From positions 14,899 to 78,898 of the forward strand of contig CAZHCJ010000002.1 of assembly GCA_964530945.1 (NCBI GenBank): DNA of 64,000 nt, written 5' to 3'. The DNA comes from Candidatus Woesearchaeota archaeon (GTDB lineage: Archaea; Nanobdellota; Nanobdellia; Pacearchaeales; GW2011-AR1). Under the pieces are notes generated by a model. It saw only the letters and a list, made by a program, of their open reading frames with translations, was not told the DNA's origin and did no database searches. A program made the position numbers and the translations under genes. Below, piece after piece: positions 3,671 through 64,000 of the stretch (the first letter of the stretch is position 1; each line of letters begins with the position of its first letter).

Positions 3671-6133
3671 ATGGCTAAAAAATCAGATTATACAGGGAAA
3701 GACATTCATGTTTTAGAAGGGCTTGAAGGTGTTCGAAAACGTCCTGCAATGTACATAGGGGGAACGGGCAAAGACGGATTGCATCACATGATTTACGAGG
3801 TGGTGGATAATGCTGTAGATGAAGCTCTTGCGGGATATTGCAAAAAAATTCTTGTACGTATAAACAAAGATGGAAGTGTAACAATAGAAGATGATGGTAG
3901 GGGAATCCCTGTAGACAAACATCCTAAGTTGAAAATTCCTGCTGTCGAAGTCGCACTAACTAAGCTTCATGCAGGGGGAAAATTTGATAAAAAATCTTAT
4001 GAAATATCTGGAGGTTTGCACGGTGTTGGTATAAGTGTTGTTAATGCCTTGTCCAAGAAACTTGTTGTGGAGATTAAACGTGATGGGAAAATATACAGGC
4101 AAGAGTATAGGCGCGGAAAAAGAGAGAACGCACTGAAACCAGTGGGAAAAACAAAAGAGACAGGGACTAAAATTACATTCTGGCCAGATGAAGAGATTTT
4201 CTCAACACTGAAATTCGATTACCTAACTCTTCAAACACGTCTACGCGAAATAGTCTTCTTAAATGCGGGTTTGAAAATTTTGTTGGTTGATGAAGAAAAA
4301 AAGAAGAAAAAAGAGTTCTTTGCTTCTGGAGGATTAATAGAATTTGTTAAGTGGATAAACAAATCAAAAGATGTTTTACATAGTAAACCAATTTATTTTA
4401 AAAAAGTAGAAGGAGATAATGTTGTAGAAGTTGCAATCCAATACAATAATTCTTATCAGACAAATATATTTGGTTTTGTTAACACTATAAACACTGTTGA
4501 AGGAGGGACGCATGTATCTGGATTTAAATCTGGTTTAACCAGGGTAATAAATGATTATGTGAAGCGTAAGAATCTTCTTAAGACAGGCTCGCTCCATGGA
4601 AATGATGTTCGCGAAGGAGTTACAGCTATTATTAGTATAAAGATGAAAGAGCCCCAGTTCGAAGGACAAACTAAAACCAAATTGGGAAATAGTGAGATGA
4701 ACGGTATTGTCAATTCAATAATTACTCAATCATTGGGAGAGTTTTTTGAGGAAAATCCGAGCATTGCTAAGAAAATAACTTCCAAATCTATAGATTCTGC
4801 TAAAGCGCGTTTGGCTGCAAAAAAAGCCAAAGATCTTGTAAGAAGGAAGAACGCCTTTTCTCTTGGCGGCTTGCCTGGAAAACTTACGGATTGTTCAAGC
4901 AAAAAATCTGATCGCTCAGAAATTTATATTGTAGAAGGAGAAAGTGCTGGAGGTTGTTTTTCTGGAGAAACGAAGGTTGCTCTTACTGATGGAAGAGATA
5001 TTTCTTTTAAACAACTTGTTAAAGAAAATAAAGAAGGAAAAAAGAATTTTGTTTACACAATAATGAGAGATGGAAAATTAGGTATAGAGGAAATAAAAAA
5101 TCCAAGAATTACTAAAAAAAATGCTGAAGTAATTAAAATAATATTGGATAATGACGAAGAGATAGTTTGTACACCAGACCATAAATTTATGTTAAGAAAT
5201 GGAAATTATAAAGAGGCCGAACATTTAACGAAAAATGATTCTCTTATGCCTCTATATAGAAAACACTCTAAAATAGGGGAAAATATAACTATAGAAGGTT
5301 ACGAAATGGTACTTGACTCTAAAAGAAAATGGATATTTACCCACATGTTGGCAGACGAATACAATCTCCGAAATAAAATAGATGATAAAAAACAGATGTT
5401 AGAAGCAGTAAATGAATATAATCATAAAATAAAAAAAATCTTAAAATTAAAAAAGAAGATTGATGTTTATGATATGGAAATTCCAAATACACATAATTTT
5501 GCTCTTTCCTCTGGTGTTTTCGTGCATAATAGCGCAAAGATGGCGCGAAACAGAGAAATCCAGGCGATATTGCCATTAAGAGGAAAAATTCTTAATGTTG
5601 AAAAATCAACACCTGTAAAAGTTTTTTCAAACACTGAAATTGCGAACCTAATTACTGCAATAGGTGCGGGCGTAGGGGATGAATTTAATTTAGATAAAAT
5701 AAGATACAATAAAGTAGTCATCATGACTGATGCCGATGTTGATGGAGAGCATATCAAAACTCTGTTGTTAACCTTCTTCTTTAGGTTTATGCCTGAACTT
5801 ATTGAAAACGGGCATATTTATGTTGCTTTGCCTCCTTTGTATAGGATTAGGAAAGGTAACAAGGACAAATATGTTTACTCGGATAAAGAATTAGAAAAAG
5901 TTAAGAGCAAGCATAAAAATGTCAAAGTTACACGCTTCAAGGGTTTAGGAGAGATGAGTTCTAATCAGCTTTGGGACACGACAATGAATCCAAAAACCCG
6001 TAAAATCAAGAAGGTTTACATTGAAGATGCTGTTGAAGCAGATCAAACATTCAGTATGCTCATGGGGAGTGATGTCCAAGCCAGAAAAGAATATATTCAA
6101 GAAAATGCACAGGAGGCGACTTTAGACGTTTAA
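3671..6133 (+). CDS. gyrB: DNA gyrase subunit B, interrupted by a mini-intein (extein about 628 aa)
   Basis: GHKL ATPase N-terminus (HHMIYEVVDNAVDEALAG), Toprim EGESAGG|..|SAKMARNRE, PLYRIRKG and C-terminal QENAQEATLDV; 820 aa is about 190 aa longer than an intein-free GyrB. Confidence 0.92.
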   Translation: MAKKSDYTGKDIHVLEGLEGVRKRPAMYIGGTGKDGLHHMIYEVVDNAVDEALAGYCKKILVRINKDGSVTIEDDGRGIPVDKHPKLKIPAVEVALTKLHAGGKFDKKSYEISGGLHGVGISVVNALSKKLVVEIKRDGKIYRQEYRRGKRENALKPVGKTKETGTKITFWPDEEIFSTLKFDYLTLQTRLREIVFLNAGLKILLVDEEKKKKKEFFASGGLIEFVKWINKSKDVLHSKPIYFKKVEGDNVVEVAIQYNNSYQTNIFGFVNTINTVEGGTHVSGFKSGLTRVINDYVKRKNLLKTGSLHGNDVREGVTAIISIKMKEPQFEGQTKTKLGNSEMNGIVNSIITQSLGEFFEENPSIAKKITSKSIDSAKARLAAKKAKDLVRRKNAFSLGGLPGKLTDCSSKKSDRSEIYIVEGESAGGCFSGETKVALTDGRDISFKQLVKENKEGKKNFVYTIMRDGKLGIEEIKNPRITKKNAEVIKIILDNDEEIVCTPDHKFMLRNGNYKEAEHLTKNDSLMPLYRKHSKIGENITIEGYEMVLDSKRKWIFTHMLADEYNLRNKIDDKKQMLEAVNEYNHKIKKILKLKKKIDVYDMEIPNTHNFALSSGVFVHNSAKMARNREIQAILPLRGKILNVEKSTPVKVFSNTEIANLITAIGAGVGDEFNLDKIRYNKVVIMTDADVDGEHIKTLLLTFFFRFMPELIENGHIYVALPPLYRIRKGNKDKYVYSDKELEKVKSKHKNVKVTRFKGLGEMSSNQLWDTTMNPKTRKIKKVYIEDAVEADQTFSMLMGSDVQARKEYIQENAQEATLDV
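4955..5530 (+). mobile_element. mini-intein (192 aa) inserted in the GyrB Toprim motif EGxSAGG^S
   Basis: Begins with Cys right after EGESAGG (CFSGETKVAL, block A), has a TPDHKF block B and terminal ...NTHNFALSSGVFVHN, followed by +1 Ser (SAKMAR); too short for a LAGLIDADG endonuclease domain. Confidence 0.8.
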
Positions 6134-6735: not shown

Positions 6736-6993
6736 ATGGTAAAAGAACTAATAGAAAAATTTGAAGAATTGGATAAAATTATGAATTGCGATTTACCAGA
6801 TGAACTTCCGCAAGAGGTAGATGAGATGTTTCAAGCAGCATATAGATTATGGGGAAAATATAGGTTTAAGATTGAAAGGGGGAACAGAATAAGTTCCAGA
6901 GAAGAAAGAGAATTTTCAAATCTTTTAGATAATATAGAAGAAAGGTTTGAATACATTAGAGATGGTATCTATGGGGTGGTTTTTGCAAGATAA
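6736..6993 (+). CDS. hypothetical protein
   Basis: 85-aa ORF directly upstream of gyrA. Confidence 0.3.
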
Positions 6994-7003
6994 AAATATA
7001 AAA

Positions 7004-9457
7004 ATGACATCAAAAAAGAAAAAGGCGAAGGAAATTGCAACATTGTCAGAAAAAGATAATATAATTAACTCAGAGATATCTGAAGAAATGAAGAAGGCTT
7101 ATTTGGATTATGCGATGAGCGTCATTGTTTCTCGTGCTATTCCAAGTATTGAAGACGGATTGAAACCTGTGCAGAGAAGAATTTTACATAGTATGAATCT
7201 TATGGGTTTGAAGCCTGGGAGTCAAACAAAAAAATCCGCAAGAATTGTCGGAGATGTTATAGGTAAGTATCATCCTCATGGAGATAGCGCAGTGTATGAT
7301 GCCATGGTAAGAATGGCTCAAAACTTTTCTCTTAGGTATCCTTTAGTTTTTGGGCAAGGAAATTTTGGAAGCATTGATGGAGATGGTCCGGCTGCCTACA
7401 GATATACAGAAAGTCGTTTGATGCCCATAGCTAAAGAGCTGTTGGAAGACATAGATAAAAACACGGTTAAATTTGTTTCAAATTTTGACAACTCTCTCGA
7501 AGAGCCAAAACTTTTACCAGGAAAACTTCCTGCCCTTATTTTGAATGGGGCAACAGGTATTGCGGTTGGGATGAGCACAAACATTCCTCCCCATAACTTA
7601 AGCGAAGTTAGTGATGCAATAATCGAATACATAAAAAACCCAGATATTTCTATTGAAGAGCTTCATGAAATTGTGAAAGGTCCTGACTTTCCTACAGGGG
7701 GACACGTAACAGGAGATATTTTAAAAATATATCAAACTGGAAAAGGAAGGTTGACTATGCGCGGGCGTACAGAGATTGAGAAGAAAAAGAAAAAAGAACT
7801 TGTTGTTATAACAGAGATTCCTTATTTGCTTAACAAAACTACATTGATAGAACAAATTGCAAAGATAATTCAAGATAAAAAAATAAAGAATGTTAAAGAT
7901 TTGCGTGACGAGAGTTCAAAAGGCAAGATACGCATTGTTCTTGAATTGAAAAAAGGCACAAATCCTAAATTTGTTGTTAACTCACTTTATAAATATACTC
8001 GGTTGCAGGACTATTTCAATGTTAAAAATTTGGCGTTGGTTAGAGGGCAACCAAAAGTTTTGAGTTTGAAGGATTTTGTTTCTGAATATGTTGATTATAG
8101 AAAAAAGATAATTACCCGTAGCACACAATTTGATTTGAATCGTGCGGAACAGCGTTTAGAGATAGTTGAAGGATTAATGATTGCATTAAAAAATATAGAT
8201 AAAATTATTTCTTATATTAAAAAATCTAAAGGTGCAAAAGAAGCTGAAGAGGGTTTGATGAAAACCTATAAACTTAGTCAGAGGCAGGCTAAAGCAGTTT
8301 TAGAGACAAAATTACAGCAACTTACCTCTTTAGAACAAGATAAGCTAAAGAAAGAAAATGAAGAACTTTCAAATGCAATAAAAGAATTTAAGAAAATTTT
8401 AGGAAGTGAGAAAGAAATTTTAAAGATAATTACTAATGAAGTTAAAGATTTGAAGAAAAAGTATGGCGATGCTCGAAGGACAAATGTTTTGGATAAAATT
8501 AAGAAAATTTCTGAGAAAGATGTTGTTCAAAAGAAAGATGTTGTTATCACAATAACCGAGAAAGGATATTGCAAACGTATGGATTTAAATACCTATAGAG
8601 AACAACGTAGAGGAGGTAAAGGAGTAAGAGGAAGCAACCTTGCGACGGGGGATTTTGTAAAACAGTTAATCACGTGTTCTACACACGATTATTTAATGTT
8701 TTTCACAACTCGTGGACGTGTGCTTTGGTTGAAAGCGTACGATATTCCTGAAGCAATGAGGTATAGTAAAGGGAAAGCAATTGTGAATTTATTGAACTTA
8801 AAAAATGAGAAAATTACAAGTGTAATCCCTGTTAATAATTTTGATGATTTCTTGTTCATGGCTACAAAGAAAGGTCAAGTGAAAAAGATATCTCTTGAAA
8901 AATTCTCTAGGCCAAGAAAAGGAGGAATTAAGGCAATGAAACTTCCTAAAGACAACTCAGACATGTTGATAGATGTCAAAGTTGTTTCAAAAGATCATGA
9001 AGTGTTTTTAGCTACAAAGAAAGGTCAAGCAATTCGTTTTTCAAGCAAAGAGGTTAGGGACATGGGGCGTGCAAGTTATGGAGTTATAGGAATAAAACTA
9101 GCAAAGGGAGATGAAGTTGTAAGCCTAGAGGTGTTGGACGAGAGTGCAGGAGATGCAATACTTACTATAACAGAGAAAGGTTACGGTAAGAGAACGGCTT
9201 TGAAAAATTATAGAAAAATTTCTAGAAGTGGCAAGGGAGTAATAAATCTTAAAACTTCAAACGTCACAGGAGATGTTGTAACGACGAGTTTCGTTAATGA
9301 TAAGGATAGCATAATTATTACGACATATAAAGGAATGGTAATACGAACTACGTTGAAAAATATACGTCGCATGGGTCGCGCTACTCGTGGAGTACGTATT
9401 GTAAAGCTTCAACCAGGAGATAAAGCTACTGACTTGGTTAAAGTTCCTGAAGAGTGA
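7004..9457 (+). CDS. gyrA: DNA gyrase subunit A
   Basis: [11 protein letters not shown]...[39 protein letters not shown] active-site region, GyrA-box-like C-terminal beta-pinwheel repeats; start taken at ATG 7004 (MTSKKKK) rather than track start 6947. Confidence 0.92.
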
Positions 9458-41420: not shown

Positions 41421-41651
41421 ATGAGTGTAAAAATTTATTCCACACCCACATGTCCTTGGTGCAACAAAGCCAAAGAGTTTTTTAAAGAAAACGATATAGA
41501 TTTTGAAAATATTGATGTAAGCAAAAATAGAAAAGCTGCACAAGAAATGGTTCAAAAATCAGGACAAATGGGTGTCCCGGTTATAGAAATTAATGATAAT
41601 GTAATCGTTGGTTTTAACGAACCGGAAATTAAAAAAGCATTAGATCTTTGA
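41421..41651 (+). CDS. glutaredoxin-like protein (NrdH/Grx, CPWC)
   Basis: VKIYSTPTCPWCNKAKEF ... GVPVIEIN. Confidence 0.7.
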   Translation: MSVKIYSTPTCPWCNKAKEFFKENDIDFENIDVSKNRKAAQEMVQKSGQMGVPVIEINDNVIVGFNEPEIKKALDL

Positions 41652-41658
41652 ATTAATA

Positions 41659-42624
41659 ATGATTGAAGAAAAATTTGATTTAATCGTTCTAGGTGGAGGC
41701 GGAAGTGGTTTAGCTGGAGCCATGTATGCTGCACGTTTGAATCTTAATGTTTTGGTATTGGGGCATACTCATGGAACAGAACTCCCAATCGGAGGGGTTA
41801 TAACGACCACACATGTGGTAGAAAATTATCCCGGATTTAAGAAACTTTCAGGACCCGAATTGGCAAAAAAATTAGAAGAACATGCTCGCGCGTATGATGA
41901 AGTTACAATTAAGACGGAGAAAGCAGAAAGTGTTGAAAAACAAAACAAAAAGTTTGTGGTTAAAACAAGCAAAGGAGAGTATGAAGGCAAAACCTTACTT
42001 TTTGCTACCGGAACAAAATGGAGAAAACTTCCTGAAAGTGTTGGGGGCAGTCGCGAATTTGAGAATCGTGGCATTTCTTATTGTGCTTTGTGCGACGGAC
42101 CTTTGTACAAAGGAAAAACAATTGCAGTGATTGGAGGTTCGGATAGTGCAGCAAAAGATGCTTTGCTTTTGAGTGAACATGCTAAAAAGGTTTATATTAT
42201 TTATCGTGGAGAAAGCATTCATCCAGAGCCAATAAACTTAGAACGTGTTGAAAAAAACAAAAAGATTGAAGTGATTAACAATACAAATATTGTTGAGATT
42301 AAAGGAAATGATATGGTTCAAAGTGTGGCTTTAGATAAAGCCCACAAAGGTTCAAAAGAACTTAAACTTGATGGTGTTTTTGTGGCTATTGGACACATTG
42401 CACTTTCTGATTTGGCGAAGCCTTTAGGTGTTAAATTGAACAAAAAAGGAGAGATTGTGATTAATCATATGACTTCTGAAACTAATGTTCCTGGAGTGTT
42501 TGCTGCAGGGGATGTTACAGATAAACATTTCAAACAACTTATTACAGGTGTGGCAGATGCTTGCACTGCTGCGCACAGTGCTTACGAACATATGATGAAT
42601 GAAGAAGTAAAGACAGGACAATAA
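41659..42624 (+). CDS. trxB: thioredoxin reductase
   Basis: FAD site LIVLGGGGSGLAGAMYAA, redox CALCDG, NADPH site VIGGSDSAAKDALLL, GVFAAGDV. Confidence 0.85.
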   Translation: MIEEKFDLIVLGGGGSGLAGAMYAARLNLNVLVLGHTHGTELPIGGVITTTHVVENYPGFKKLSGPELAKKLEEHARAYDEVTIKTEKAESVEKQNKKFVVKTSKGEYEGKTLLFATGTKWRKLPESVGGSREFENRGISYCALCDGPLYKGKTIAVIGGSDSAAKDALLLSEHAKKVYIIYRGESIHPEPINLERVEKNKKIEVINNTNIVEIKGNDMVQSVALDKAHKGSKELKLDGVFVAIGHIALSDLAKPLGVKLNKKGEIVINHMTSETNVPGVFAAGDVTDKHFKQLITGVADACTAAHSAYEHMMNEEVKTGQ

Positions 42625-42687: not shown

Positions 42688-43227
42688 ATGGAAGAAGAGT
42701 TTAGAAGAGTAAGAGAATCTATAAGAGCACTTGAAAGATCTTGTAAGCGGGAGCTTGGAGATGCTACTCGGAGAGTGAATGAACTCGAAGGAAATACTTA
42801 CCAACACGGAAGAAGAGTTGAAGGTGCTTATGATAAAGGAATGCGTGCTGGGAGAAGTGAGAGCTACCAAAATGTTTATGATTCACTAGACACATTTTTC
42901 AGAGGCGAGGGAGAAGTTTATGTTATGGAAGCTCATAATCCAGAAGAATGGAACGGAGATTTTAATCTAAGACCTCTTTCAAGTGGCGAGGTAGAATCTA
43001 TTTATACAAAAGTTTCGGATTTGCCGAAAATCCAAAGTCGCGCAGTAAGAAGTTTAGAACATGAAGGAGTCACGAGATTAGGGCAGGTTGCATTAAGAAC
43101 AGAAGAACAACTTTTGAATGTGGACAATTTTGGAGTCAAATCTCTTGAATTTTTTAGGCAGGCTTTAGCAGAAAGAGGCTTGCGTTTTGGAATGGACTTA
43201 TTGGGGTATGTGCCTTCTACTGAGTAA
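42688..43227 (+). CDS. protein with C-terminal helix-hairpin-helix domain resembling the bacterial RNA polymerase alpha C-terminal domain; Arg-rich, elevated GC
   Basis: VRSLEHEGVTRLGQVALRTEEQLLNVDNFGVKSLEFFRQALAERGL follows the alphaCTD pattern (..v..L.......LL...N.G.KSL.EI...L...GL); local GC is visibly higher than neighbours. Confidence 0.4.
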   Translation: MEEEFRRVRESIRALERSCKRELGDATRRVNELEGNTYQHGRRVEGAYDKGMRAGRSESYQNVYDSLDTFFRGEGEVYVMEAHNPEEWNGDFNLRPLSSGEVESIYTKVSDLPKIQSRAVRSLEHEGVTRLGQVALRTEEQLLNVDNFGVKSLEFFRQALAERGLRFGMDLLGYVPSTE

Positions 43228-43273: not shown

Positions 43274-43531
43274 ATGGCAAAGATGACAAACACTCGTGGT
43301 AAAACAATAAAGCTGGAAGATGGAGAAAAGGTCAGAGATGCGGCTGAAAAGTTAGGAGTTAAATTCTCGTGTAGGAATGGGCTTTGCGGCACGTGTATGA
43401 CTGATGTTGTTGAAGGTCAAGAAAATCTTTCTGAGTTGACGGAGCAAGAAAAAGTGTTCCATTTGGATAAAGAAATGAGACTTATGTGCCGGTGTAAAAT
43501 TAAATCTGGAGATGTGAAAATAAAACCTTAA
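43274..43531 (+). CDS. plant-type [2Fe-2S] ferredoxin-like small protein
   Basis: CRNGLCGTC...(30 aa)...C = C-x4-C-x2-C-x30-C; stop overlaps or abuts the dph2 start. Confidence 0.7.
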   Translation: MAKMTNTRGKTIKLEDGEKVRDAAEKLGVKFSCRNGLCGTCMTDVVEGQENLSELTEQEKVFHLDKEMRLMCRCKIKSGDVKIKP

Positions 43532-43532
43532 A

Positions 43533-44525
43533 ATGACACTAAACTTCGAAAAAGAAAAACTCGTTCGTGAACTGAAGAAACGCAAACCGAAAAAGGTTTT
43601 AGTTCAGCTTGCTGAAGGGATAAAACAAAACGCTGTTGAACTTTCTGAAACGATGCACGAGGCTGTGCCTGGGTTGGAAATTATATTTTCTGGAGAGACG
43701 TGTTGGGGTGCTTGCTCTGTAAGTGTGCAAGAGGCAGAATACTTCAATGTGGATCTAATTGTTCATTTTGGACACGCGCGTTTTATTGACATTGATTTTC
43801 CTATTTTATATATTGAAGTTCAAGATGAACTTAACTTAGAACCATTAATGAAACGTTCCTTGAAAGAGCTGGAAAAATTTGAAGTTATTGGACTTAGTTA
43901 TTCTATTCAGCATAGACACGATTTAGAAAAAATGAAAAAGTTTTATGAATCTCAAGGCAAGAAAGTTGTTCTTTCTGAAAAAATAGGGAATGTTGACTAT
44001 GAGGGACACATAGTGGGATGCCAATATGAAGGTCTTAAGGCAATACAAGAAAAGGTTGATGTGTTTTTAATTTTTGGAAACCAGTTTCATTCTATGGGAG
44101 CATCTTTAGCGGTTGAAAAACCTGTTGTGCTTGTGGATGTTTATAACGACTCTGTAAGAAGCATGAAAGGTTTGCGCGACAAAATACTTAAGCAACGTGC
44201 AATATCCATTGACAAACTTAAGAATGCTAAAAAGGTAGGGATAATTGTCGAGATAAAACCAGGACAGCAGTTTGGTTCAGCAAAGTATCTTTTGAAAGAA
44301 ATGAAAAAAACAGGAAAAGAAGCCGTTGTTATCACGATGAATGAACTTACTCCGGAGAAACTTATGAATTTTTATAATATTGATGCTTTCGTGGAATTAG
44401 CTTGTCCTCGCATAGCTGTGGACGACTTTTTCAAGTATGAAAAACCAATTTTAACATTTAAAGAAGCACTTATTGCTCTTGGCTTGATGTCTTGGGAAGA
44501 AGGCTTGAAAACTGGTTTGGTCTGA
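43533..44525 (+). CDS. dph2: diphthamide biosynthesis enzyme Dph2 (2-(3-amino-3-carboxypropyl)histidine synthase)
   Basis: VLVQLAEGIK...IIFSGETCWGACSVSVQEA...DLIVHFGHA, three-domain Dph2 layout, 330 aa. Confidence 0.85.
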   Translation: MTLNFEKEKLVRELKKRKPKKVLVQLAEGIKQNAVELSETMHEAVPGLEIIFSGETCWGACSVSVQEAEYFNVDLIVHFGHARFIDIDFPILYIEVQDELNLEPLMKRSLKELEKFEVIGLSYSIQHRHDLEKMKKFYESQGKKVVLSEKIGNVDYEGHIVGCQYEGLKAIQEKVDVFLIFGNQFHSMGASLAVEKPVVLVDVYNDSVRSMKGLRDKILKQRAISIDKLKNAKKVGIIVEIKPGQQFGSAKYLLKEMKKTGKEAVVITMNELTPEKLMNFYNIDAFVELACPRIAVDDFFKYEKPILTFKEALIALGLMSWEEGLKTGLV

Positions 44526-44584: not shown

Positions 44585-44797
44585 ATGGAAAAAACAACAA
44601 TTGCTATAAGTAAAGATTTGAAAAAGAAAATTGCAACATTTGGAAATGCTGGAGAAAGTTATTCTGAGGTGCTCGAAAGAATCTATGATGCTGCAGTAAA
44701 AACTCAAATAAGAGAATTGTTGTTAAATGAAGAAGGATTTATTTCTTTAAATGATTTTGAAAAAGAGGTTGAAAAGAAATGGCCAAGGTCGAAATAA
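44585..44797 (+). CDS. antitoxin-like small protein (same family as 17695 and 60587)
   Basis: MEKTTIAISKDLKKKIATFGNAGESYSEVLERIYD. Confidence 0.5.
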   Translation: MEKTTIAISKDLKKKIATFGNAGESYSEVLERIYDAAVKTQIRELLLNEEGFISLNDFEKEVEKKWPRSK

Positions 44798-45117
44798 TCG
44801 ACTCATTGGCAAGAGAGATTAAAAAGAGATTCAAAGGAGAATCCCACGAAATCATTAAATTATTAAGAAGTCTGGAAAAGAATCCAAAGAAAGGAAGATC
44901 TTTGGGAAACGTTGGGGGAATTGTGATAAAGGAGATAAGATACAAAAAGTATAGATTTTATTTTGTTACGGATGGATATAAAATTAAGGTTTATGGTATA
45001 TCAGAATTGAAAGATTTATTGATTAGGTTTGTTAGAATGTCAGATAAAAAAGCACAGCAGAAAACTATAAATGAGATAAGAAATATCTTAAGAAGTTTTG
45101 GAAGCGAAGGGTTTTGA
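44779..45117 (+). CDS. RelE/ParE-like toxin
   Basis: ...GIVIKEIRYKKYRFYFVTDGYKIKVYGI; overlaps the upstream antitoxin by 19 nt. Confidence 0.45.
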   Translation: MAKVEIIDSLAREIKKRFKGESHEIIKLLRSLEKNPKKGRSLGNVGGIVIKEIRYKKYRFYFVTDGYKIKVYGISELKDLLIRFVRMSDKKAQQKTINEIRNILRSFGSEGF

Positions 45118-47591: not shown

Positions 47592-48305
47592 ATGTCTGAA
47601 GAAAATACAATAACGTTCAAAAAAGATACTCTATGGAAAGTTGGAACAGCTGTGTTTGCTATTCTTTTTGTATTTGCATTGCTCGGCGGATTCGGCTCAT
47701 TAGGAAGTAGTTCAGGAGCCGTTGTCGATGACAAAGATGCAGGACAACAAGATGATGTGAATGCAAAAGCTCTTATTGAAGATAATGATCCTGTTTTAGG
47801 AAATGAAGATGCTGAAGTTTCAATCGTCGAATTTAGCGATTTTCAGTGTTCATTTTGCGCGAGAGCCCATACAGGAGCGATGGCTGATTTTAAGGCAAGT
47901 AGTTATTTTACCAATGGTGAAGTAAATTTTGTTTACAAGCATTTGCCTTTGAATAGCATTCATCCACAAGCTCAAGAAGCTGCAGAAGCTTCATTATGTG
48001 CTCAAGACCAAGAATCTTTCTGGGAATACCATGATATGCTTTTCGCAAATCAAGGAGCTCTAGATACAAGTAGTTTGAAATCTTATGCTGCACAACTTGG
48101 ACTCGACACAGGAGAGTTTAATGAGTGTCTTGATAGTGGAGAAAAAGCTTCCGAGGTTAATAAAGAGACGGCTCAAGCAACTTCTGCTGGAGCGAGAGGA
48201 ACACCTTATTTCCTTGTTGTTAACACAAAAACGGGAGATGCTACAAGTGTTTCAGGAGCAGTTCCATTTTCACAATTCGAGACCGCAATTAATGCGGTTC
48301 TTTAA
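47592..48305 (+). CDS. DsbA-like thiol:disulfide oxidoreductase, membrane-anchored (copy 1)
   Basis: SD AAAGGAGG; N-terminal TM; FSDFQCSFCARAH CxxC in a thioredoxin fold; cis-Pro region GTPYFLV. Confidence 0.7.
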   Translation: MSEENTITFKKDTLWKVGTAVFAILFVFALLGGFGSLGSSSGAVVDDKDAGQQDDVNAKALIEDNDPVLGNEDAEVSIVEFSDFQCSFCARAHTGAMADFKASSYFTNGEVNFVYKHLPLNSIHPQAQEAAEASLCAQDQESFWEYHDMLFANQGALDTSSLKSYAAQLGLDTGEFNECLDSGEKASEVNKETAQATSAGARGTPYFLVVNTKTGDATSVSGAVPFSQFETAINAVL

Positions 48306-58046: not shown

Positions 58047-60278
58047 ATGAAAAAACCTGTTAAAGCAATAATTTCAATACAAGGAATGCATTGTGCTAGT
58101 TGCGCATCTAACATAAAGAAAAATCTTGGGAAGGTTAAGGGCGTGAAAGAGGCTAGTGTGAGTCTTATGACAAATAAGGCTGTTGTTGAACTTGATGGAG
58201 AAAAAGTTCCTGAAGAGAAATTAAGAAAAGCTATTTCTTCTGTTGGGAATTATGAAGCTTTAAACATTGAGTACTCTGACTCTGGAAAAAAGAGTGAGGA
58301 AAAACAAAAACACGAAGAGTACTCTAAAGAGCATAAACATCCTCATGGTGTTGCAAGCAATGCCGAGGAGAAAAATTGGAAACGCAAGATGGCTTGGGGG
58401 TGGATTATAACCCTTCCTGTAGCATTTCTTATGTTTTCAGAAAGATTTTTTAATATTGAAATAGGTCATATCTTGACCACTTACTTAATTCTAATACTTT
58501 CTTTTCCAGTAGTTTTTATTTTAGGCTGGAACACAATAAAAGGTGGCTTCAAGGGCCTTTCAAAATTTTACTTTAATATGGATTTGCTCATAGCTCTTGG
58601 AACGATTATAGCATATGTTTCTGGAATACTAACTTTCTTTTTACCTCTTGAAAATTATTCTGGTGTTGCAGCAATGATTATGACCATTTTTCTTACGGGA
58701 AAGTATATTGAAGCCCGTGCTCGCGGAAGAGCAGGACAGGAAATAAAGAAACTTTTGGAGTTAGGGGCTAAAAAGGCTAGGCGTTTAAAAAATGGCGAAG
58801 AAATTGAAATAGATGTTTCTGAAATAAAAAAAGGAGATATTTTGATAGTTAAACCAGGAGAAAAGATACCTACCGACGGGGTTGTTGTTAAAGGGGGAAG
58901 TAGTGTTGATGAATCAATGGTTACAGGAGAAAGTATTCCTATAGACAAAACAAAAGGTAGTAATGTTATTGGGGCAACGGTAAATCAAGATGGGATTTTA
59001 CATATTAAAGCTACAAAAGTGGGCAAAGACACATTTCTCTCACATATAATTGAATTAGTTGAAAAGACCCAAAGTTCAAAAGTCCCAATACAAGCTTTTG
59101 CAGACAAAATAACAAATATTTTTGTCCCTACAGTAATACTCATTACAATTTTAACTTTTATAGGATGGATTCTTTTTGGCGCAAGTGTCAGCAATGCTCT
59201 TGCCATAGCAATAGCTGTTTTAGTTATAGCTTGTCCGTGTGCCCTTGGACTAGCGACGCCGACTGCTTTAATGGTTGGCTCTGGAATTGGAGCTAAAAAT
59301 GGAATTTTAATTAGAAAAGGCGAGGCAATACAAACAATGAAAGAAGTTAAAACAATTGTATTAGATAAAACAGGAACAATTACTAAAGGAAAACCAGAGG
59401 TTGTTGAAGTGTATTCTTTGGGTAAAGAAAAAGAATTGATTGGAATTGCTGCAAGTTTAGAAAAGCTGAGCGAGCATCCATTATCTCATGCCATAGTTGA
59501 AAAAGGTAAAGAAATGAAAGCAAAAACCTTGAAAGTTAAAAATTTCAAAATACTTAGAGGGCGAGGAGTTCAAGGAAAAATTGGCGGTAATGATATTCTT
59601 ATTGGAAATAGTAATTTAATCAAAGAGAAAAATATTCCTCTCGGAAAACTCAAGAAAAAAGTTTCTGAGTTTGAAAATAGAGGTCATACTACAATAATCG
59701 TTTCTGAAAATAAACGTGTTTTGGGAATTATTGGTGTTGCAGATGCACCTAAAGATGATTCTAAAGAAGCAATTTTAAAACTTAAAAAAATGGGGTTGGA
59801 AGTGGTTATGATGACTGGAGATAATGAAGCGACAGCTAAAGCAATTGGCAAAAAAGTGGGCATTAATGAGGTTCTTGCAAGCGTCATGCCTGGAGATAAA
59901 GCAAAAGAAGTAAAATCTTTGCAAAATAAAAATAAAGGAATGGTTGCTTTTGTCGGAGATGGAATAAATGACGCTCCTGGATTGAAGCAAGCAAACGTGG
60001 GAATTGCGATGGGAACAGGAACAGACATCGCTATTGAAGCAGGGGACATAGTGATAGTTAAAGGCTCTCTTAATGGAGTAGTCCAAGCAATAAATCTAAG
60101 TAATGCAACATTCAGCAAGATTAAACAAAATGTATTTTGGGCATTCGCATATAATATCATTGCCATACCTGTAGCAATCGCTGGTTTGTTGCATCCTATA
60201 ATTGCAGAGCTTGCAATGGCTCTTTCGTCTGTAAGTGTTGTAGGAAATGCGAATCTGCTAAGAAGAAAAAAGATTTAA
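58047..60278 (+). CDS. copA: copper-translocating P1B-type ATPase CopA
   Basis: [18 protein letters not shown] ([14 protein letters not shown]), [25 protein letters not shown]. Confidence 0.9.
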
Positions 60279-60302
60279 ATAAAACAAAAAATTGTATTCA
60301 AT

Positions 60303-60509
60303 ATGAAAAAAGATAATTTGTTAGGGATTGTGGCTCTGGCAGTCATAGTACTGGCTTTGTTATTTGGATTCTTCTCTATGGGGTATGGGATGATGGGCTC
60401 GTATTTTGGAGGAGGTTTTATGTGGATTTTCATGTTCATAATCTGGATATTGGTTATTGTGTTTCTTATTTTAGGAATTTTGTGGTTAATCAAAGAATTG
60501 AAGAAGTAG
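60303..60509 (+). CDS. small Gly/Met-rich membrane protein
   Basis: 68 aa, 2 TM, paralog of the 57584 peptide. Confidence 0.4.
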   Translation: MKKDNLLGIVALAVIVLALLFGFFSMGYGMMGSYFGGGFMWIFMFIIWILVIVFLILGILWLIKELKK

Positions 60510-60586
60510 TGTTTAATGCTTTTCTTTGATTAAATAAGATATTTTAGACGAAATATTTATAAATTTACATCTGTATACACAAGTAA

Positions 60587-60796
60587 ATGGAAACAACAAT
60601 ACGTCTTTCTGGAAACGTTAAAAAACAGTTAGATAAGATGAAGATTCATAGTAAAGAAAGCTATAGTGATGTAATAGAATTTCTCATAGAAGATCATCTG
60701 GAATTGAGTGAAGAAACAAAGAGAAGAATTAAAAAAGCAAAAAAAAGTGAAAATTGGATTTCCCATGAAGAAGTTAAAAAAAGATTTGGTTTATAA
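60587..60796 (+). CDS. antitoxin (METTIRL family), partner of RelE/ParE
   Basis: METTIRLSGNVKKQLDKMKIHSKESYSDVIEFLIE; stop overlaps the toxin start. Confidence 0.6.
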   Translation: METTIRLSGNVKKQLDKMKIHSKESYSDVIEFLIEDHLELSEETKRRIKKAKKSENWISHEEVKKRFGL

Positions 60797-61050
60797 TGGT
60801 AGAGATAAAATGGGAAGAAAATGTTTTGAGACAATTAGATAAGCTTCCAGATGTTATTTCTAAACGAATTGTTAAAAAAGTTGATTCATTAAGAATAAGC
60901 CCATTTTCAAAAATTAAAAAATTGAAGGGTGAAGATGTATTTAGATTAAGAATCGGAGATTATAGAATAATTTTAGATGTCGATGTTAAAAACAAATTAA
61001 TAAGAATCTTATATCTAGGACACAGAAAGAATATTTATAAGAAGAAATGA
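60796..61050 (+). CDS. RelE/ParE-family toxin
   Basis: ...VFRLRIGDYRIILDVDVKNKLIRILYLGHRKNIY canonical RelE/ParE C-terminus. Confidence 0.7.
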   Translation: MVEIKWEENVLRQLDKLPDVISKRIVKKVDSLRISPFSKIKKLKGEDVFRLRIGDYRIILDVDVKNKLIRILYLGHRKNIYKKK

Positions 61051-61830
61051 TTAATCCTCTTCAATCCAGCTATAACCTTTTTCTTCCAGTTTATTAACCA
61101 GTTCTCCTGTTCCAGAATGGACAATTTTACCTTTATTAATAATTGAAACTCTGTCAGGTTTGATGTGTTCAAGAATACGCTTATAGTGGGTAATGATTAA
61201 AACTGTTTTTCCTTTACCTATGTTTGTATCTGATTCTTGTGATTTGAAAGTGTTTATTCCCCGGGCAACTAACTTTAAAGAATCTATATCCAATCCAGAG
61301 TCAGTTTCATCTAAGACAGCAAGTTTAGGATTGAGAATCAACAATTGGAGAATTTCCATTTTCTTTTTCTCTCCCCCGGAGAAACCTTCATTAAGATAAC
61401 GATCAAGAAAACTTTTATCAACTCCTAGTTTTTTAGAGTGCTCCTTTAATAATTTATTAAATTCTAAAACTGACAAGAGAGATTTTTTATGAAGAGAGTT
61501 GTAAGCTTGCCTTAGAAATTTTTGTATTTGAACCCCTGAAACTTCAACAGGATTTTGAAAACTCAGAAAGATTCCTTTTTGCGCTCTTTCGTTTGGCTCT
61601 AATCCTAAAATATCTTCTCCATTTAGTAGAATCTTGCCTTGAGTAACTTTGTAGCGAGGGTCCCCCATGAGCACCTTTGCCAAGGTAGATTTTCCAGAGC
61701 CATTTGGGCCCATCAGGGCATGTGTTTGACCTCTTTCTAATTCAAGAGTTAATCCATTAAGAATTTTTATGGGTGTTTTTTTATCCTCAGGGTTCTCAAT
61801 TTCAACATGTAAGTCTTTTATTTTAAGCAT
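61051..61830 (-). CDS. sufC: Fe-S cluster assembly ATPase SufC
   Basis: Walker A GPNGSGKST, ABC signature FSGGEKKK, Walker B LAVLDETDSGLD, H-loop ITHY. Confidence 0.85.
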   Translation of the reverse strand: MLKIKDLHVEIENPEDKKTPIKILNGLTLELERGQTHALMGPNGSGKSTLAKVLMGDPRYKVTQGKILLNGEDILGLEPNERAQKGIFLSFQNPVEVSGVQIQKFLRQAYNSLHKKSLLSVLEFNKLLKEHSKKLGVDKSFLDRYLNEGFSGGEKKKMEILQLLILNPKLAVLDETDSGLDIDSLKLVARGINTFKSQESDTNIGKGKTVLIITHYKRILEHIKPDRVSIINKGKIVHSGTGELVNKLEEKGYSWIEED

Positions 61831-61838
61831 TAAAAGAA

Positions 61839-62153
61839 TTATATGCCTGCTCTTTTAAGTCTTTCTTCAAGATAACTTAATACGTTAATGGGTTTGGTCA
61901 AAGGATTTTCTCGTACATTTTTTACCGACAAAATATCCTGTCTTTTAGTGAATTCCTTAAAAATTATACTTTCAATATTCCCTTTCTCTGTTTTGTAAGC
62001 AACAACATAAAACCACGGAGCAAATTCTTCACGTCTAACATTGAGTTTTCTCCTCCATCCAAGATAGATTCCCTTACCCACTTCTTTTCCGTTGACAAAT
62101 ATCCTATAAGAGGTATTCCATTTGGGATGTTTTAAGGCGCCGTACTTTTTCAT
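61839..62153 (-). CDS. hypothetical protein in suf cluster
   Basis: 104 aa, no family recognised. Confidence 0.35.
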   Translation of the reverse strand: MKKYGALKHPKWNTSYRIFVNGKEVGKGIYLGWRRKLNVRREEFAPWFYVVAYKTEKGNIESIIFKEFTKRQDILSVKNVRENPLTKPINVLSYLEERLKRAGI

Positions 62154-62201
62154 AAGAAAATATGTTTTTCATTTTTTAAAAGAATTGTTGTGGAGTAAGT
62201 G

Positions 62202-62492
62202 CTACTTCAATGCCTTTTCTAAGGTTTCTCTTGCAGCTTCTTCATTTTTTATTGGAACTTCCTTTGCATTTATTATTTCTAGTTCATTAATGCTCGCACG
62301 GCAATAATTGAACTTGTACCCTCTGATTATCTCTTCTCCAAGACTAATCACAATTATAGAACGGTATTTATTCCCCTTTACTCCTTCAAGCTTTGTTATT
62401 AATCCTTTCCCTTCAAAAATTACTTCACCTTTTTCAATAATAGATGTGTCATATACTTCCCCTATTCTCACATCGCTGTGAAAATAAACCAT
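62202..62492 (-). CDS. hypothetical protein in suf cluster
   Basis: 96 aa, single Cys. Confidence 0.35.
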   Translation of the reverse strand: MVYFHSDVRIGEVYDTSIIEKGEVIFEGKGLITKLEGVKGNKYRSIIVISLGEEIIRGYKFNYCRASINELEIINAKEVPIKNEEAARETLEKALK

Positions 62493-62493
62493 C

Positions 62494-62871
62494 TTACATC
62501 AATGCTTTCTTCGCGGCTTCTAAAGGAAGAAGGGCACATTTAATGCGTGATGGCGAAAGTTTGAGTTTTAACATTTTTAGCATATCATTTTTGTTCATCT
62601 CTTTAACATCTTTAACGCTAAGATTTTTTAGTTTGTTTGTTAACATAGACGCAGAAACTATAGACATCACGCAACCACTTCCAGAAAACTTCACTTCAGA
62701 AATTTTTCCGCCCTTAACGATGAGATGCATGGTTATTTCATCTCCACAAAGTGTATTGTATTCTGTTGCCTTGTGAGTGGGCTTTTCAAGTTTTCCGTAG
62801 TTTTCAGGACTTTTGTACAGCTCTAGAATGTGTTCTCGGTATAAATCATCAGAGATGTTTTTGTGAGTCAT
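62494..62871 (-). CDS. sufU: SufU/IscU-like Fe-S scaffold/sulfur acceptor (NifU N-terminal domain)
   Basis: LYREHILELYKSPENYG...NTLCGDEI...FSGSGCVMSIVSASMLT...RIKCALLPLEA three conserved Cys. Confidence 0.7.
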   Translation of the reverse strand: MTHKNISDDLYREHILELYKSPENYGKLEKPTHKATEYNTLCGDEITMHLIVKGGKISEVKFSGSGCVMSIVSASMLTNKLKNLSVKDVKEMNKNDMLKMLKLKLSPSRIKCALLPLEAAKKALM

Positions 62872-64000
62872 CTATTAAACCTCGCGTTTATTTTTTTCAA
62901 ACTTTTAATAAGTTTATCTATGTCCTTTTTTGTTGTGAAAACTGAGAAGCTTGCTCTGCAAACTCCTTTAACTCCTAGAATGCTCATAAGAGGCATTGCA
63001 CACATGTGTCCTCCACGGATTGCAATTTTATCTCTGTTTAGCAACTCTGCAACGTCATGAGGATGTACATTTTTTATGTTGAACGAAACAATGCCTAGTG
63101 AGTTTTTTAAGCCAGGATTGTAAATTTCAATGTTTGGGACATTCTTCATTTCTTTTAATGCATAAGCCAAAAGTTTTCTTTCGTTTTTTCTAATGGAAGT
63201 TAGACCAATTTTGCGAAGATATTTTATTGATTCTGCTAAACCCATTGCTTCTGAAATGTTTTGAGTTCCTGCTTCAAATTTTTCAGGGGGGTTTGTGTAG
63301 GTGGCATTTTTAAAACTGACAGATTTTATCATTCCTCCTCCAAGATTAAAAGGTTTAAGTTCATTGAGCAGTTTCTCTTTGCCGTAAAGAACCCCTATTC
63401 CCATTGGCCCCAACATTTTGTGGCTTGAGAATGCTAAAAAATCGGGTTTTAATTCTTTAACGTTTATTGGCAAATGTGAGATACTTTGGGCAGCATCAAT
63501 TAGTGTTAATGCCTTGTTTTTTCTTGCAAGATTTATTATTTTTTTAATTGGATTTATTGTACCGAGAACATTTGAGACGTGTGTGAATGCAACCAAAGCT
63601 GTGTGTTTGTCAATTTTTTCTTTTGCATCTTTCATATCTAGTGTAAATGTGTTTTTATTTAGTTTTATGAAACGCAATTCCATTTTGTTATCTTTTGCAA
63701 AACGTTGCCACGGAATAAGGTTGCTATGGTGTTCCATTTCGGTCAAAACAATGTTGCGCTTGCCTTTTTTAATTAAAGGTTTAATGCTGTTTGCAAGAAG
63801 GTTGATGGATTCTGTAGTATTACGTGTAAAGACAATCTCGTTTGGTTTGGAGTTTATGAAACTCGCTATAATTTTTCTTGCATTATTGTATTTTTGCATT
63901 GCCCGATCTGCCAAAGTGTACAACCCTCTGTCAACATTTGCATTATCTTTTCTTGAGAAATTAGATATCGCTTCGATTACTTGTTTTGGACGTTGGCTTG
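62868..64000 (-). CDS. sufS: cysteine desulfurase SufS (partial; N-terminus lies beyond the window end)
   Basis: PLP-Lys context SSHKMLGPMGIGVLYG, catalytic Cys RGGHMCAMP; track start is a TTG, and the frame stays open to position 64000 reading ...RPKQVIEAISNFSRKDNANVDRG. Confidence 0.8.
   Translation of the reverse strand, partial: SQRPKQVIEAISNFSRKDNANVDRGLYTLADRAMQKYNNARKIIASFINSKPNEIVFTRNTTESINLLANSIKPLIKKGKRNIVLTEMEHHSNLIPWQRFAKDNKMELRFIKLNKNTFTLDMKDAKEKIDKHTALVAFTHVSNVLGTINPIKKIINLARKNKALTLIDAAQSISHLPINVKELKPDFLAFSSHKMLGPMGIGVLYGKEKLLNELKPFNLGGGMIKSVSFKNATYTNPPEKFEAGTQNISEAMGLAESIKYLRKIGLTSIRKNERKLLAYALKEMKNVPNIEIYNPGLKNSLGIVSFNIKNVHPHDVAELLNRDKIAIRGGHMCAMPLMSILGVKGVCRASFSVFTTKKDIDKLIKSLKKINARFNR

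Follow-up and report, generated by a model that had tools for sequence, protein, structure and literature searches.

A small open reading frame (ORF) on the plus strand of a 64,000-nucleotide stretch of DNA of Candidatus Woesearchaeota archaeon (contig CAZHCJ010000002.1 of assembly GCA_964530945.1, positions 14,899 to 78,898; the whole stretch is called the window here) most likely encodes a soluble FdC-like [2Fe-2S] ferredoxin, with cluster binding predicted from its sequence, and it lies directly before dph2, the gene for the diphthamide synthesis enzyme Dph2. The reading that we rank first, with a probability of about one half, is that this ferredoxin, named Fer2 after its Pfam family, is a general or stress-linked electron carrier encoded in an island of redox genes; Dph2 would then be one of its possible clients and not a dedicated partner. 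It is ranked most likely because Fer2 co-varies with oxygen-defence genes, whereas Dph2 is universal in archaea.

Fer2 (positions 43274-43531, 85 amino acids) starts with ATG and ends with a TAA codon at 43529-43531, and a single base (A, 43532) separates this codon from the ATG of dph2 at 43533, so that the junction at 43529-43535 reads TAA-A-ATG. An earlier note on this DNA had described an 85-residue plant-type ferredoxin with a C-x4-C-x2-C-x30-C motif ending 1-2 nucleotides before the dph2 start, and this description holds, the spacer being 1 nucleotide. Its naming of the larger ORF (43533-44525, plus strand, 330 amino acids) as dph2, encoding 2-(3-amino-3-carboxypropyl)histidine synthase, is likewise borne out. 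This product matches the Diphthamide_syn family (PF01866, E 2.7e-73), reaches 263.6 bits with the archaeal Dph2 equivalog model TIGR03682 (arCOG04112; cut-off 202.8) and can be aligned over its full length to the archaeal Dph2 structures 6q2d (E 5e-58), 3lzc and 6bxm. Moreover, its [4Fe-4S] cysteines C61, C163 and C291 do not vary among 16 relatives and align with cysteines of the solved chains. Since both ORFs have family matches and conserved cysteines, they are real genes and not chance ORFs. No database record identical to the window's Fer2 was found by exact-sequence look-up; the named homologues of Dph2 carry Pacearchaeota or Nanoarchaeota labels.

The assignment of Fer2 to the ferredoxins comes from its match to the Pfam family (PF00111, E 1.9e-13; 50.6 bits, cut-off 21) and from the motif C33-x4-C38-x2-C41-x30-C72, whose four cysteines are invariant in the alignments A2, A3 and A4 and in all 33 listed orthologues. 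A fifth cysteine, C74, is not kept among the relatives. The best solved relative is FdC of Rhodobacter capsulatus (9i2a, E 2.9e-14 over residues 10-85), a monomeric [2Fe-2S] carrier with a midpoint potential (Em) of -285 mV, which its authors consider a novel structural class (PMC12223475). The curated NCBIfam ferredoxin models all score far under their cut-offs, namely the haloarchaeal Fer model (35.6 bits, cut-off 150), the plant-type model fdx_plant (TIGR02008; 31.5 bits, cut-off 81), the ISC Fdx model fdx_isc (27.5 bits, cut-off 132) and the YfaE model (25.4 bits, cut-off 75). The Pfam and NCBIfam scans match ferredoxin families only, with no homology to the CSL zinc-finger protein Dph3/Kti11. 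An AlphaFold2 model calculated from an 8-sequence alignment had a mean predicted local distance difference test score of 60.3, falling below 50 in the cluster loop; its quality did not suffice to look for the beta-grasp ferredoxin fold, and it was left unused. In an exhaustive profile search (E<=1e-10) the Fer2 subfamily came to 202 representative clusters, with few exceptions stand-alone proteins of 82-95 residues.

The neighbourhood of dph2 was surveyed by a Dph2 scan in which each GTDB species was represented by one genome; it returned 417 loci. The best 80 (59-85% identity to the window's Dph2, nearly all with DPANN labels and Pacearchaeota-like) were fetched with 10-kb flanks. In 31 of these 80 loci dph2 is preceded on its own strand by a Fer2 orthologue, recognised by a subfamily hidden Markov model (HMM) at 94-161 bits; among the 51 loci whose upstream flank is 5 kb or longer, the number is 27. 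It directly adjoins dph2 in 16 of the 31, and over all 31 the distance between the two genes goes from an overlap up to 4.6 kb. An early impression that the linkage decays fast, gained from a word-indexed search (8 clusters) and the first four contexts, was misleading in the light of the HMM scan. The most conserved upstream neighbour of dph2 is the gene of a thioredoxin reductase (TrxR), found in 44 of the 80 loci and thus more often than Fer2, and a DsbA-like gene follows dph2 in 41. The recurrent order is thermosome, glutaredoxin-like thioredoxin (Grx), TrxR, an optional variable gene, Fer2, optionally a peroxiredoxin (Prx) or variable gene, dph2 and DsbA; in seven loci Fer2 is gone and TrxR directly abuts dph2.

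In a neighbour-joining tree of Dph2 one large clade unites the loci with Fer2, about 24 loci with the order TrxR-dph2-DsbA and without Fer2 make up another, and a divergent third group is mixed. As the Fer2 pattern follows the clades of the Dph2 tree, it can be explained by vertical inheritance with losses and insertions and not by repeated independent assembly, and the linkage of Fer2 to dph2 is inherited within one DPANN group. No ferredoxin-family gene was found within 5 kb of dph2 in the three euryarchaeal contexts used as outgroups, which were a Methanobrevibacter, a Methanoperedens-like metagenome-assembled genome (MAG) and a Thermococcales-like contig, obtained by a search with the solved Dph2 sequences whose matches were dominated by Methanobrevibacter. 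The check that the earlier note had proposed, conservation of Fer2 upstream of dph2 in other archaea, has therefore a divided outcome: the linkage does recur, in the 31 loci given above, but it is confined to one DPANN group, and Prx is the commoner partner of the ferredoxin. Three of the loci (L047, L063 and L076) are labelled Omnitrophota, Bacillota and Paceibacteria although they carry an archaeal Dph2 and Pacearchaeota-type neighbours; these contigs are probably mis-binned.

Seen from the ferredoxin the picture is wider. A scan of JGI metagenome contigs with alignment A4 gave 79 Fer2 loci, and among those with at least 5 kb downstream dph2 follows on the same strand in 14 of 27 and is absent within 10 kb in 13 of 27. 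Fer2 is a conserved gene that often comes first in an operon. Its commonest downstream partner is a 2-Cys peroxiredoxin (AhpC-TSA), with or without a superoxide dismutase (SOD); dph2 takes second place, and some loci have an FNR-like reductase. Where 3 kb or more of downstream sequence is available (23 unique loci), Prx lies within 3 kb in 15 and is the immediate neighbour in 13, whereas the corresponding numbers for Dph2 are 11 and 2; Fe/Mn SOD lies within 3 kb in 11. The median spacer between Fer2 and Prx is 28 nucleotides (n=30), Prx and SOD are separated by 9-69 nucleotides and Prx and dph2 by 6-404. A tight operon of Fer2, 2-Cys peroxiredoxin and Fe/Mn SOD is seen in L113 (9971-11498), L114, L117, L123, L128, L137, L147 and others.

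Three context classes can be recognised on the Fer2 tree. The first (about 24 loci) has the order Nre/PepF ... Fer2-Prx-SOD without dph2 or TrxR, and some of its ferredoxins are 61-63% identical to that of the window. The second (about 7 loci) has a cysteine desulfurase, Fer2, further genes, an FNR-like flavoprotein and DsbA. The third, to which the window belongs, has Grx-TrxR-x-Fer2-(Prx)-dph2. Within this third class loci with and without Prx are interleaved on the tree, so that those in which Fer2 abuts dph2 differ from their nearest relatives only by the presence or absence of Prx. The association with oxygen defence is also visible from the side of Dph2, where SOD genes occur in 9 of the 31 Fer2-bearing loci and in none of the 49 others.

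The close spacing of the two genes in the window had been taken by the earlier note as translational coupling. The tight junction itself stands, but it is not distinctive, as 22 of 68 same-strand neighbour pairs in the window have a gap of at most 1 nucleotide (27 of 68 at most 8 nucleotides), a base rate that was taken from crude gene calls. The 1-nucleotide spacer between Fer2 and dph2 is thus ordinary here and not meaningful alone. With the two scans pooled there are 56 unique loci that contain both genes, which are directly adjacent in 21-22, and 13 of the 21 measured adjacent pairs have spacers of -1 to +8 nucleotides. Fer2 and dph2 are probably co-transcribed in the window. In a more general way, the comparative data warn that tight spacing in a compact DPANN genome should not be read as functional coupling.

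Some observations weigh against regarding Fer2 as a general carrier. Short spacers make up 62% (13/21) of the adjacent Fer2-dph2 pairs, a modest excess over the base rate of about 40% (27/68) in the window. Wherever both genes occur, Fer2 without exception precedes dph2 on the strand that they share, and three loci (L028, L066 and L086) have the two abutting without TrxR, as would be expected of a functional operon. In addition, the co-occurrence counts are descriptive, because the loci are not phylogenetically independent, and the surveys took in loci with their flanks and not whole genomes, so that other ferredoxins or clients encoded elsewhere would be invisible.

The constant arrangement, the short spacers and the pairs without TrxR also speak for a dedicated reductant of Dph2, that is, a ferredoxin co-translated with Dph2 that would reduce its [4Fe-4S] cluster for the cleavage of S-adenosylmethionine (SAM), in a role like that of Dph3. 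The same-strand and always-upstream linkage (31/80 genomes, 27/51 with sufficient flank, 14/27 of the Fer2-centred loci), the 21-22 directly adjacent pairs with 13 spacers of at most 8 nucleotides and the adjacency that outlives the loss of TrxR in the three loci just named are all consistent with it. Of the diphthamide proteins, archaea have just Dph2, Dph5 and Dph6, Dph3 being missing (PMC6143161; PMC3541065), their dph genes are generally not clustered with each other (PMC3541065), and PhDph2 was activated in vitro with dithionite (PMC8251694). The literature searched names neither a physiological electron donor for archaeal Dph2 nor a ferredoxin next to dph2, in agreement with the earlier note, which held that this donor had not been established. 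That archaea lack Dph3 and have no donor named in this literature also counts in favour of a dedicated reductant (PMC8251694; PMC3541065; PMC6143161).

Nevertheless, we consider a dedicated Dph2 reductant unlikely. A large Pacearchaeota clade keeps the TrxR-dph2 synteny without Fer2 within 10 kb, about half of the Fer2 loci are without dph2 over 10 kb, and the ferredoxin usually shares its operon with Prx/SOD. The loci without Fer2 have no substitute in its slot, since no small Fe-S gene recurs there and no 4Fe-4S motif was found; these slots hold scattered Cys-rich ORFs, mostly antisense, and a recurrent 135-residue family without cysteines. No fusion of Fer2 to Dph2 is present among the Dph2 hits listed (the 120 best per listing of 3296 at E<=1e-10), and none of that size among the 150 best Fer2 representatives. 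Moreover, the Fer2 subfamily, with its 202 representative clusters, is small for a partner of the pan-archaeal Dph2, the three outgroup loci have no ferredoxin near dph2, and the Em of the closest characterised relative FdC (-285 mV) is not especially low (PMC12223475).

The proposal of the earlier note that Fer2 is the missing archaeal donor can accordingly be kept in part. As the linkage is bound to one clade, is absent from the three outgroups and has Prx as the usual partner, Fer2 is a reasonable candidate in these organisms and not the archaeal donor in general; the more frequent linkages, of Fer2 to Prx and of TrxR to dph2, also weaken the specificity of its pairing with dph2. In other loci this ferredoxin stands first in peroxiredoxin/SOD operons, so that a part in diphthamide synthesis, if it has one, is likely to be shared with, or secondary to, the work of a general or stress-linked carrier, and would be confined to part of one archaeal group.

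A source of electrons for the ferredoxin is suggested by a flavoprotein gene that accompanies it. Protein P0174 (366 residues, from a Nanoarchaeota MAG) combines FAD_binding_8 and NAD_binding_1 domains with a C-terminal Fer2 domain of the window's subfamily, and its N-terminal part is 31% identical (E 5e-22) to the stand-alone FNR-like protein encoded near Fer2 in other loci. It is the sole informative fusion found for Fer2, and the partner is FNR/cytochrome-b5-reductase-like and not Dph2. The other longer Fer2 matches are fused to FeoA, FGE-sulfatase or Pyr_redox_2, or are tandem Fer2 proteins. The stand-alone FNR-like gene (for example at L111:497-1177 and L037:12744-13430) has Fer2 adjacent or near in all 16 fetched loci that contain it, and it is found in 5 of the 31 Dph2 loci with Fer2 and in 0 of the 49 without. 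Within the 64-kb window itself no FNR-like, Prx or SOD gene was found.

The best solved relatives of the FNR-like protein are NADH-cytochrome b5 reductases, 2eix (E 1.2e-12) and 7rom (E 1.6e-11), the latter with the title 'NADH-cytochrome b5 reductase 1'. Yeast Cbr1 is a member of this same class of enzymes. In the eukaryotic diphthamide pathway Cbr1 reduces Dph3 (PMC8251694), and this parallel to the FNR-like partner of Fer2, which also speaks for the dedicated reductant, is intriguing, the similarity being weak and at the level of the superfamily.

A different client would be the thiol-peroxide defence. In this explanation Fer2 would pass electrons to a non-canonical TrxR working in the ferredoxin-dependent style, and these would proceed to the Grx-like thioredoxin and to 2-Cys peroxiredoxin, dph2 being a bystander. 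The window contains the first two of these genes on the plus strand, a glutaredoxin-like small thioredoxin at 41421-41651 (Pfam Glutaredoxin, E 2.9e-20), which recurs upstream in related loci, and a thioredoxin reductase-like flavoprotein with a CALC active site at 41659-42624 (Pyr_redox_2, E 4.8e-41), whose best PDB matches are NADPH-dependent thioredoxin reductases. Across the TrxR family (about 60 orthologues, L007-L165) the CxxC is kept, and GGSDSA/YRGxxIHPEP stands where the solved NADPH-dependent enzymes have GGGDxA/HRRDxFR; the window's protein has YRGESIH in place of HRRDxFR. Judged by these motifs, the reductant of this family may be other than NADPH. Fer2 is placed between Grx-TrxR and Prx in many loci, the Fer2-Prx and Prx-SOD spacers are operon-like, and TrxR is present in 25 of 31 loci with Fer2 compared with 19 of 49 without. 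This explanation is nonetheless distinctly unlikely. The window's TrxR is nearer to conventional NADPH-dependent enzymes (215 bits to Sulfolobus solfataricus TrxB-3) than to the ferredoxin-dependent FFTR 6gna (121 bits), a variable or opposite-strand gene usually stands between TrxR and Fer2, Fer2-Prx-SOD contigs exist without a nearby TrxR, and many loci have TrxR without Fer2.

In the window the slot between TrxR and Fer2, which holds unrelated genes in other loci, is occupied by a 179-residue ORF (42688-43227, plus strand) with a C-terminal helix-hairpin-helix like the C-terminal domain of the RNA polymerase alpha subunit (PF03118, E 2.5e-7). None of the fetched loci contains an orthologue of it, and it remained a singleton in clustering.

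Fer2 might instead be a ferredoxin of Fe-S biogenesis or cofactor maintenance, similar to ISC Fdx or YfaE, that would assist the assembly or the repair of oxygen-damaged clusters, that of Dph2 included. A cysteine desulfurase gene lies directly upstream of Fer2 in L124, L159 and L160, and a SufS/SufC-like Fe-S assembly cluster is found 17-20 kb downstream of Fer2 in the window. The association of Fer2 with SOD and Prx would suit such a role, as would the weak, sub-threshold matches to fdx_isc and YfaE and the reported repair of [3Fe-4S] Dph1-Dph2 by Dph3 (PMC8251694). We hold this to be highly unlikely, as the scores of these two models are far under their cut-offs (27.5 against 132 and 25.4 against 75), cysteine desulfurase genes are equally common in Dph2 loci with Fer2 (6/31) and without it (7/49), and direct adjacency to a desulfurase is limited to about 3 unique loci.

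The general or stress-linked carrier that we favour would operate as follows. Fer2 would be one gene of an island for redox functions and oxidative stress that is conserved in Pacearchaeota-like DPANN archaea, with the order Grx, TrxR, Fer2, (Prx), (SOD), dph2 and DsbA. It would act as a one-electron carrier that presumably receives its electrons from an NAD(P)H-dependent FNR/cytochrome-b5-reductase-like flavoprotein, and would then serve any Fe-S or radical-SAM clients encoded in the small genome, among which Dph2 is a plausible recipient. Its position directly before dph2 in the window would reflect inherited synteny in a lineage that has no peroxiredoxin gene between the two. The roles of general carrier, Dph2 reductant, TrxR donor and Fe-S assembly ferredoxin are not mutually exclusive. 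A more specific proposal, to which we give little probability, is a chain in Pacearchaeota-like organisms that would run from the b5-reductase-like NAD(P)H flavoprotein through the FdC-type Fer2 to Dph2, co-regulated with Prx/SOD and keeping the oxygen-labile cluster of Dph2 reduced or repaired in oxygen-exposed lineages. If this were true, Fer2 would be the first reductant of an archaeal Dph2 to be recognised as physiological. The locus and its relatives provide a clonable candidate set for this purpose, consisting of the ferredoxin, the FNR/cytochrome-b5-reductase-like partner and the cognate Dph2.

Directly downstream of dph2 in the window there is a gene for a VapB-like antitoxin of 70 residues together with a 112-residue gene of no known family (44585-45117, with a 19-nucleotide overlap), a pair that recurs after dph2 in L003, L008 and L043. 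The DsbA/Thioredoxin_4-like protein, a conserved downstream neighbour of dph2 in the lineage, is encoded at 47592-48305 (plus strand; an orthologue matches Thioredoxin_4 with E 2.3e-22). Between 47592 and 56409 two such genes flank a run of genes for small membrane or secreted proteins, in which several families (HTH-membrane, cupredoxin-like and others) occur twice, suggesting a duplicated cassette. The SufS/SufC-like cluster mentioned above forms part of the region 58047-63899, where the gene of an HMA-domain copper P-type ATPase precedes a minus-strand group made up of a SufC-like ABC ATPase, then small ORFs and a class-V aminotransferase (cysteine desulfurase). Upstream, the DNA gyrase B gene (3671-6133) is interrupted by an Intein_splicing domain at residues 438-620, which splits the Toprim region, and gyrA follows at 6962-9457. 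Besides this intein-containing GyrB, GyrA, the Cu-ATPase and the SufS/SufC-like cluster, the window encodes Kae1, aIF2-gamma, aIF5B, SerRS and the thermosome, and this gene content, with the labels of the Dph2 homologues, points to a DPANN archaeon with a small genome.

Several known systems can be compared with this locus. FdC (Ferredoxin-4, fdxC) of R. capsulatus has in common with the window's Fer2 the signature CxxGxCGTCMT...EG.ENLSE...RLxCxC and the four ligand cysteines, although it is a bacterial, nitrogen-fixation-linked protein of 104 residues, whereas Fer2 is archaeal, has 85 residues and lies in a neighbourhood of thiol and reactive oxygen species defence genes and dph2. The PetF-type plant ferredoxins belong to the same Pfam family and have the same ligand pattern (C-x4-C-x2-C-x~29-C), but Fer2 is about 12 residues shorter, is without photosynthetic partners and is far under the fdx_plant cut-off. 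YfaE of Escherichia coli is an 84-residue [2Fe-2S] ferredoxin that maintains the cofactor of class Ia ribonucleotide reductase (RNR) and whose gene adjoins that of the metalloenzyme it services. It is similar in size to Fer2, both are stand-alone Fer2 proteins, and it offers a precedent for a cofactor-maintenance ferredoxin; in contrast to YfaE, Fer2 has no RNR nearby and its score against the YfaE model is under the cut-off. The FFTR system (6gna) resembles the locus in having a ferredoxin gene beside a TrxR-like flavoprotein without the canonical HRRxxxR NADPH motif, but the window's TrxR is much closer to the NADPH-type enzymes and its family is often without Fer2.

The remaining comparison is with Dph3/Kti11 and Cbr1 of eukaryotes. 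Dph3 is not homologous to Fer2, being a CSL zinc-finger, rubredoxin-like single-iron protein, whereas Fer2 is by sequence a [2Fe-2S] protein of the Fer2 family. The linkage of Fer2 to dph2 does not appear to be specific, and electron transfer from Fer2 to Dph2 is proposed only. The two could nevertheless work alike, each with a small metalloprotein beside Dph2 and an NAD(P)H flavoprotein of the FNR superfamily, and the chain from flavoprotein to Fer2 to Dph2 would, if true, be a non-homologous counterpart of the eukaryotic route from Cbr1 through Dph3 to Dph1-Dph2.

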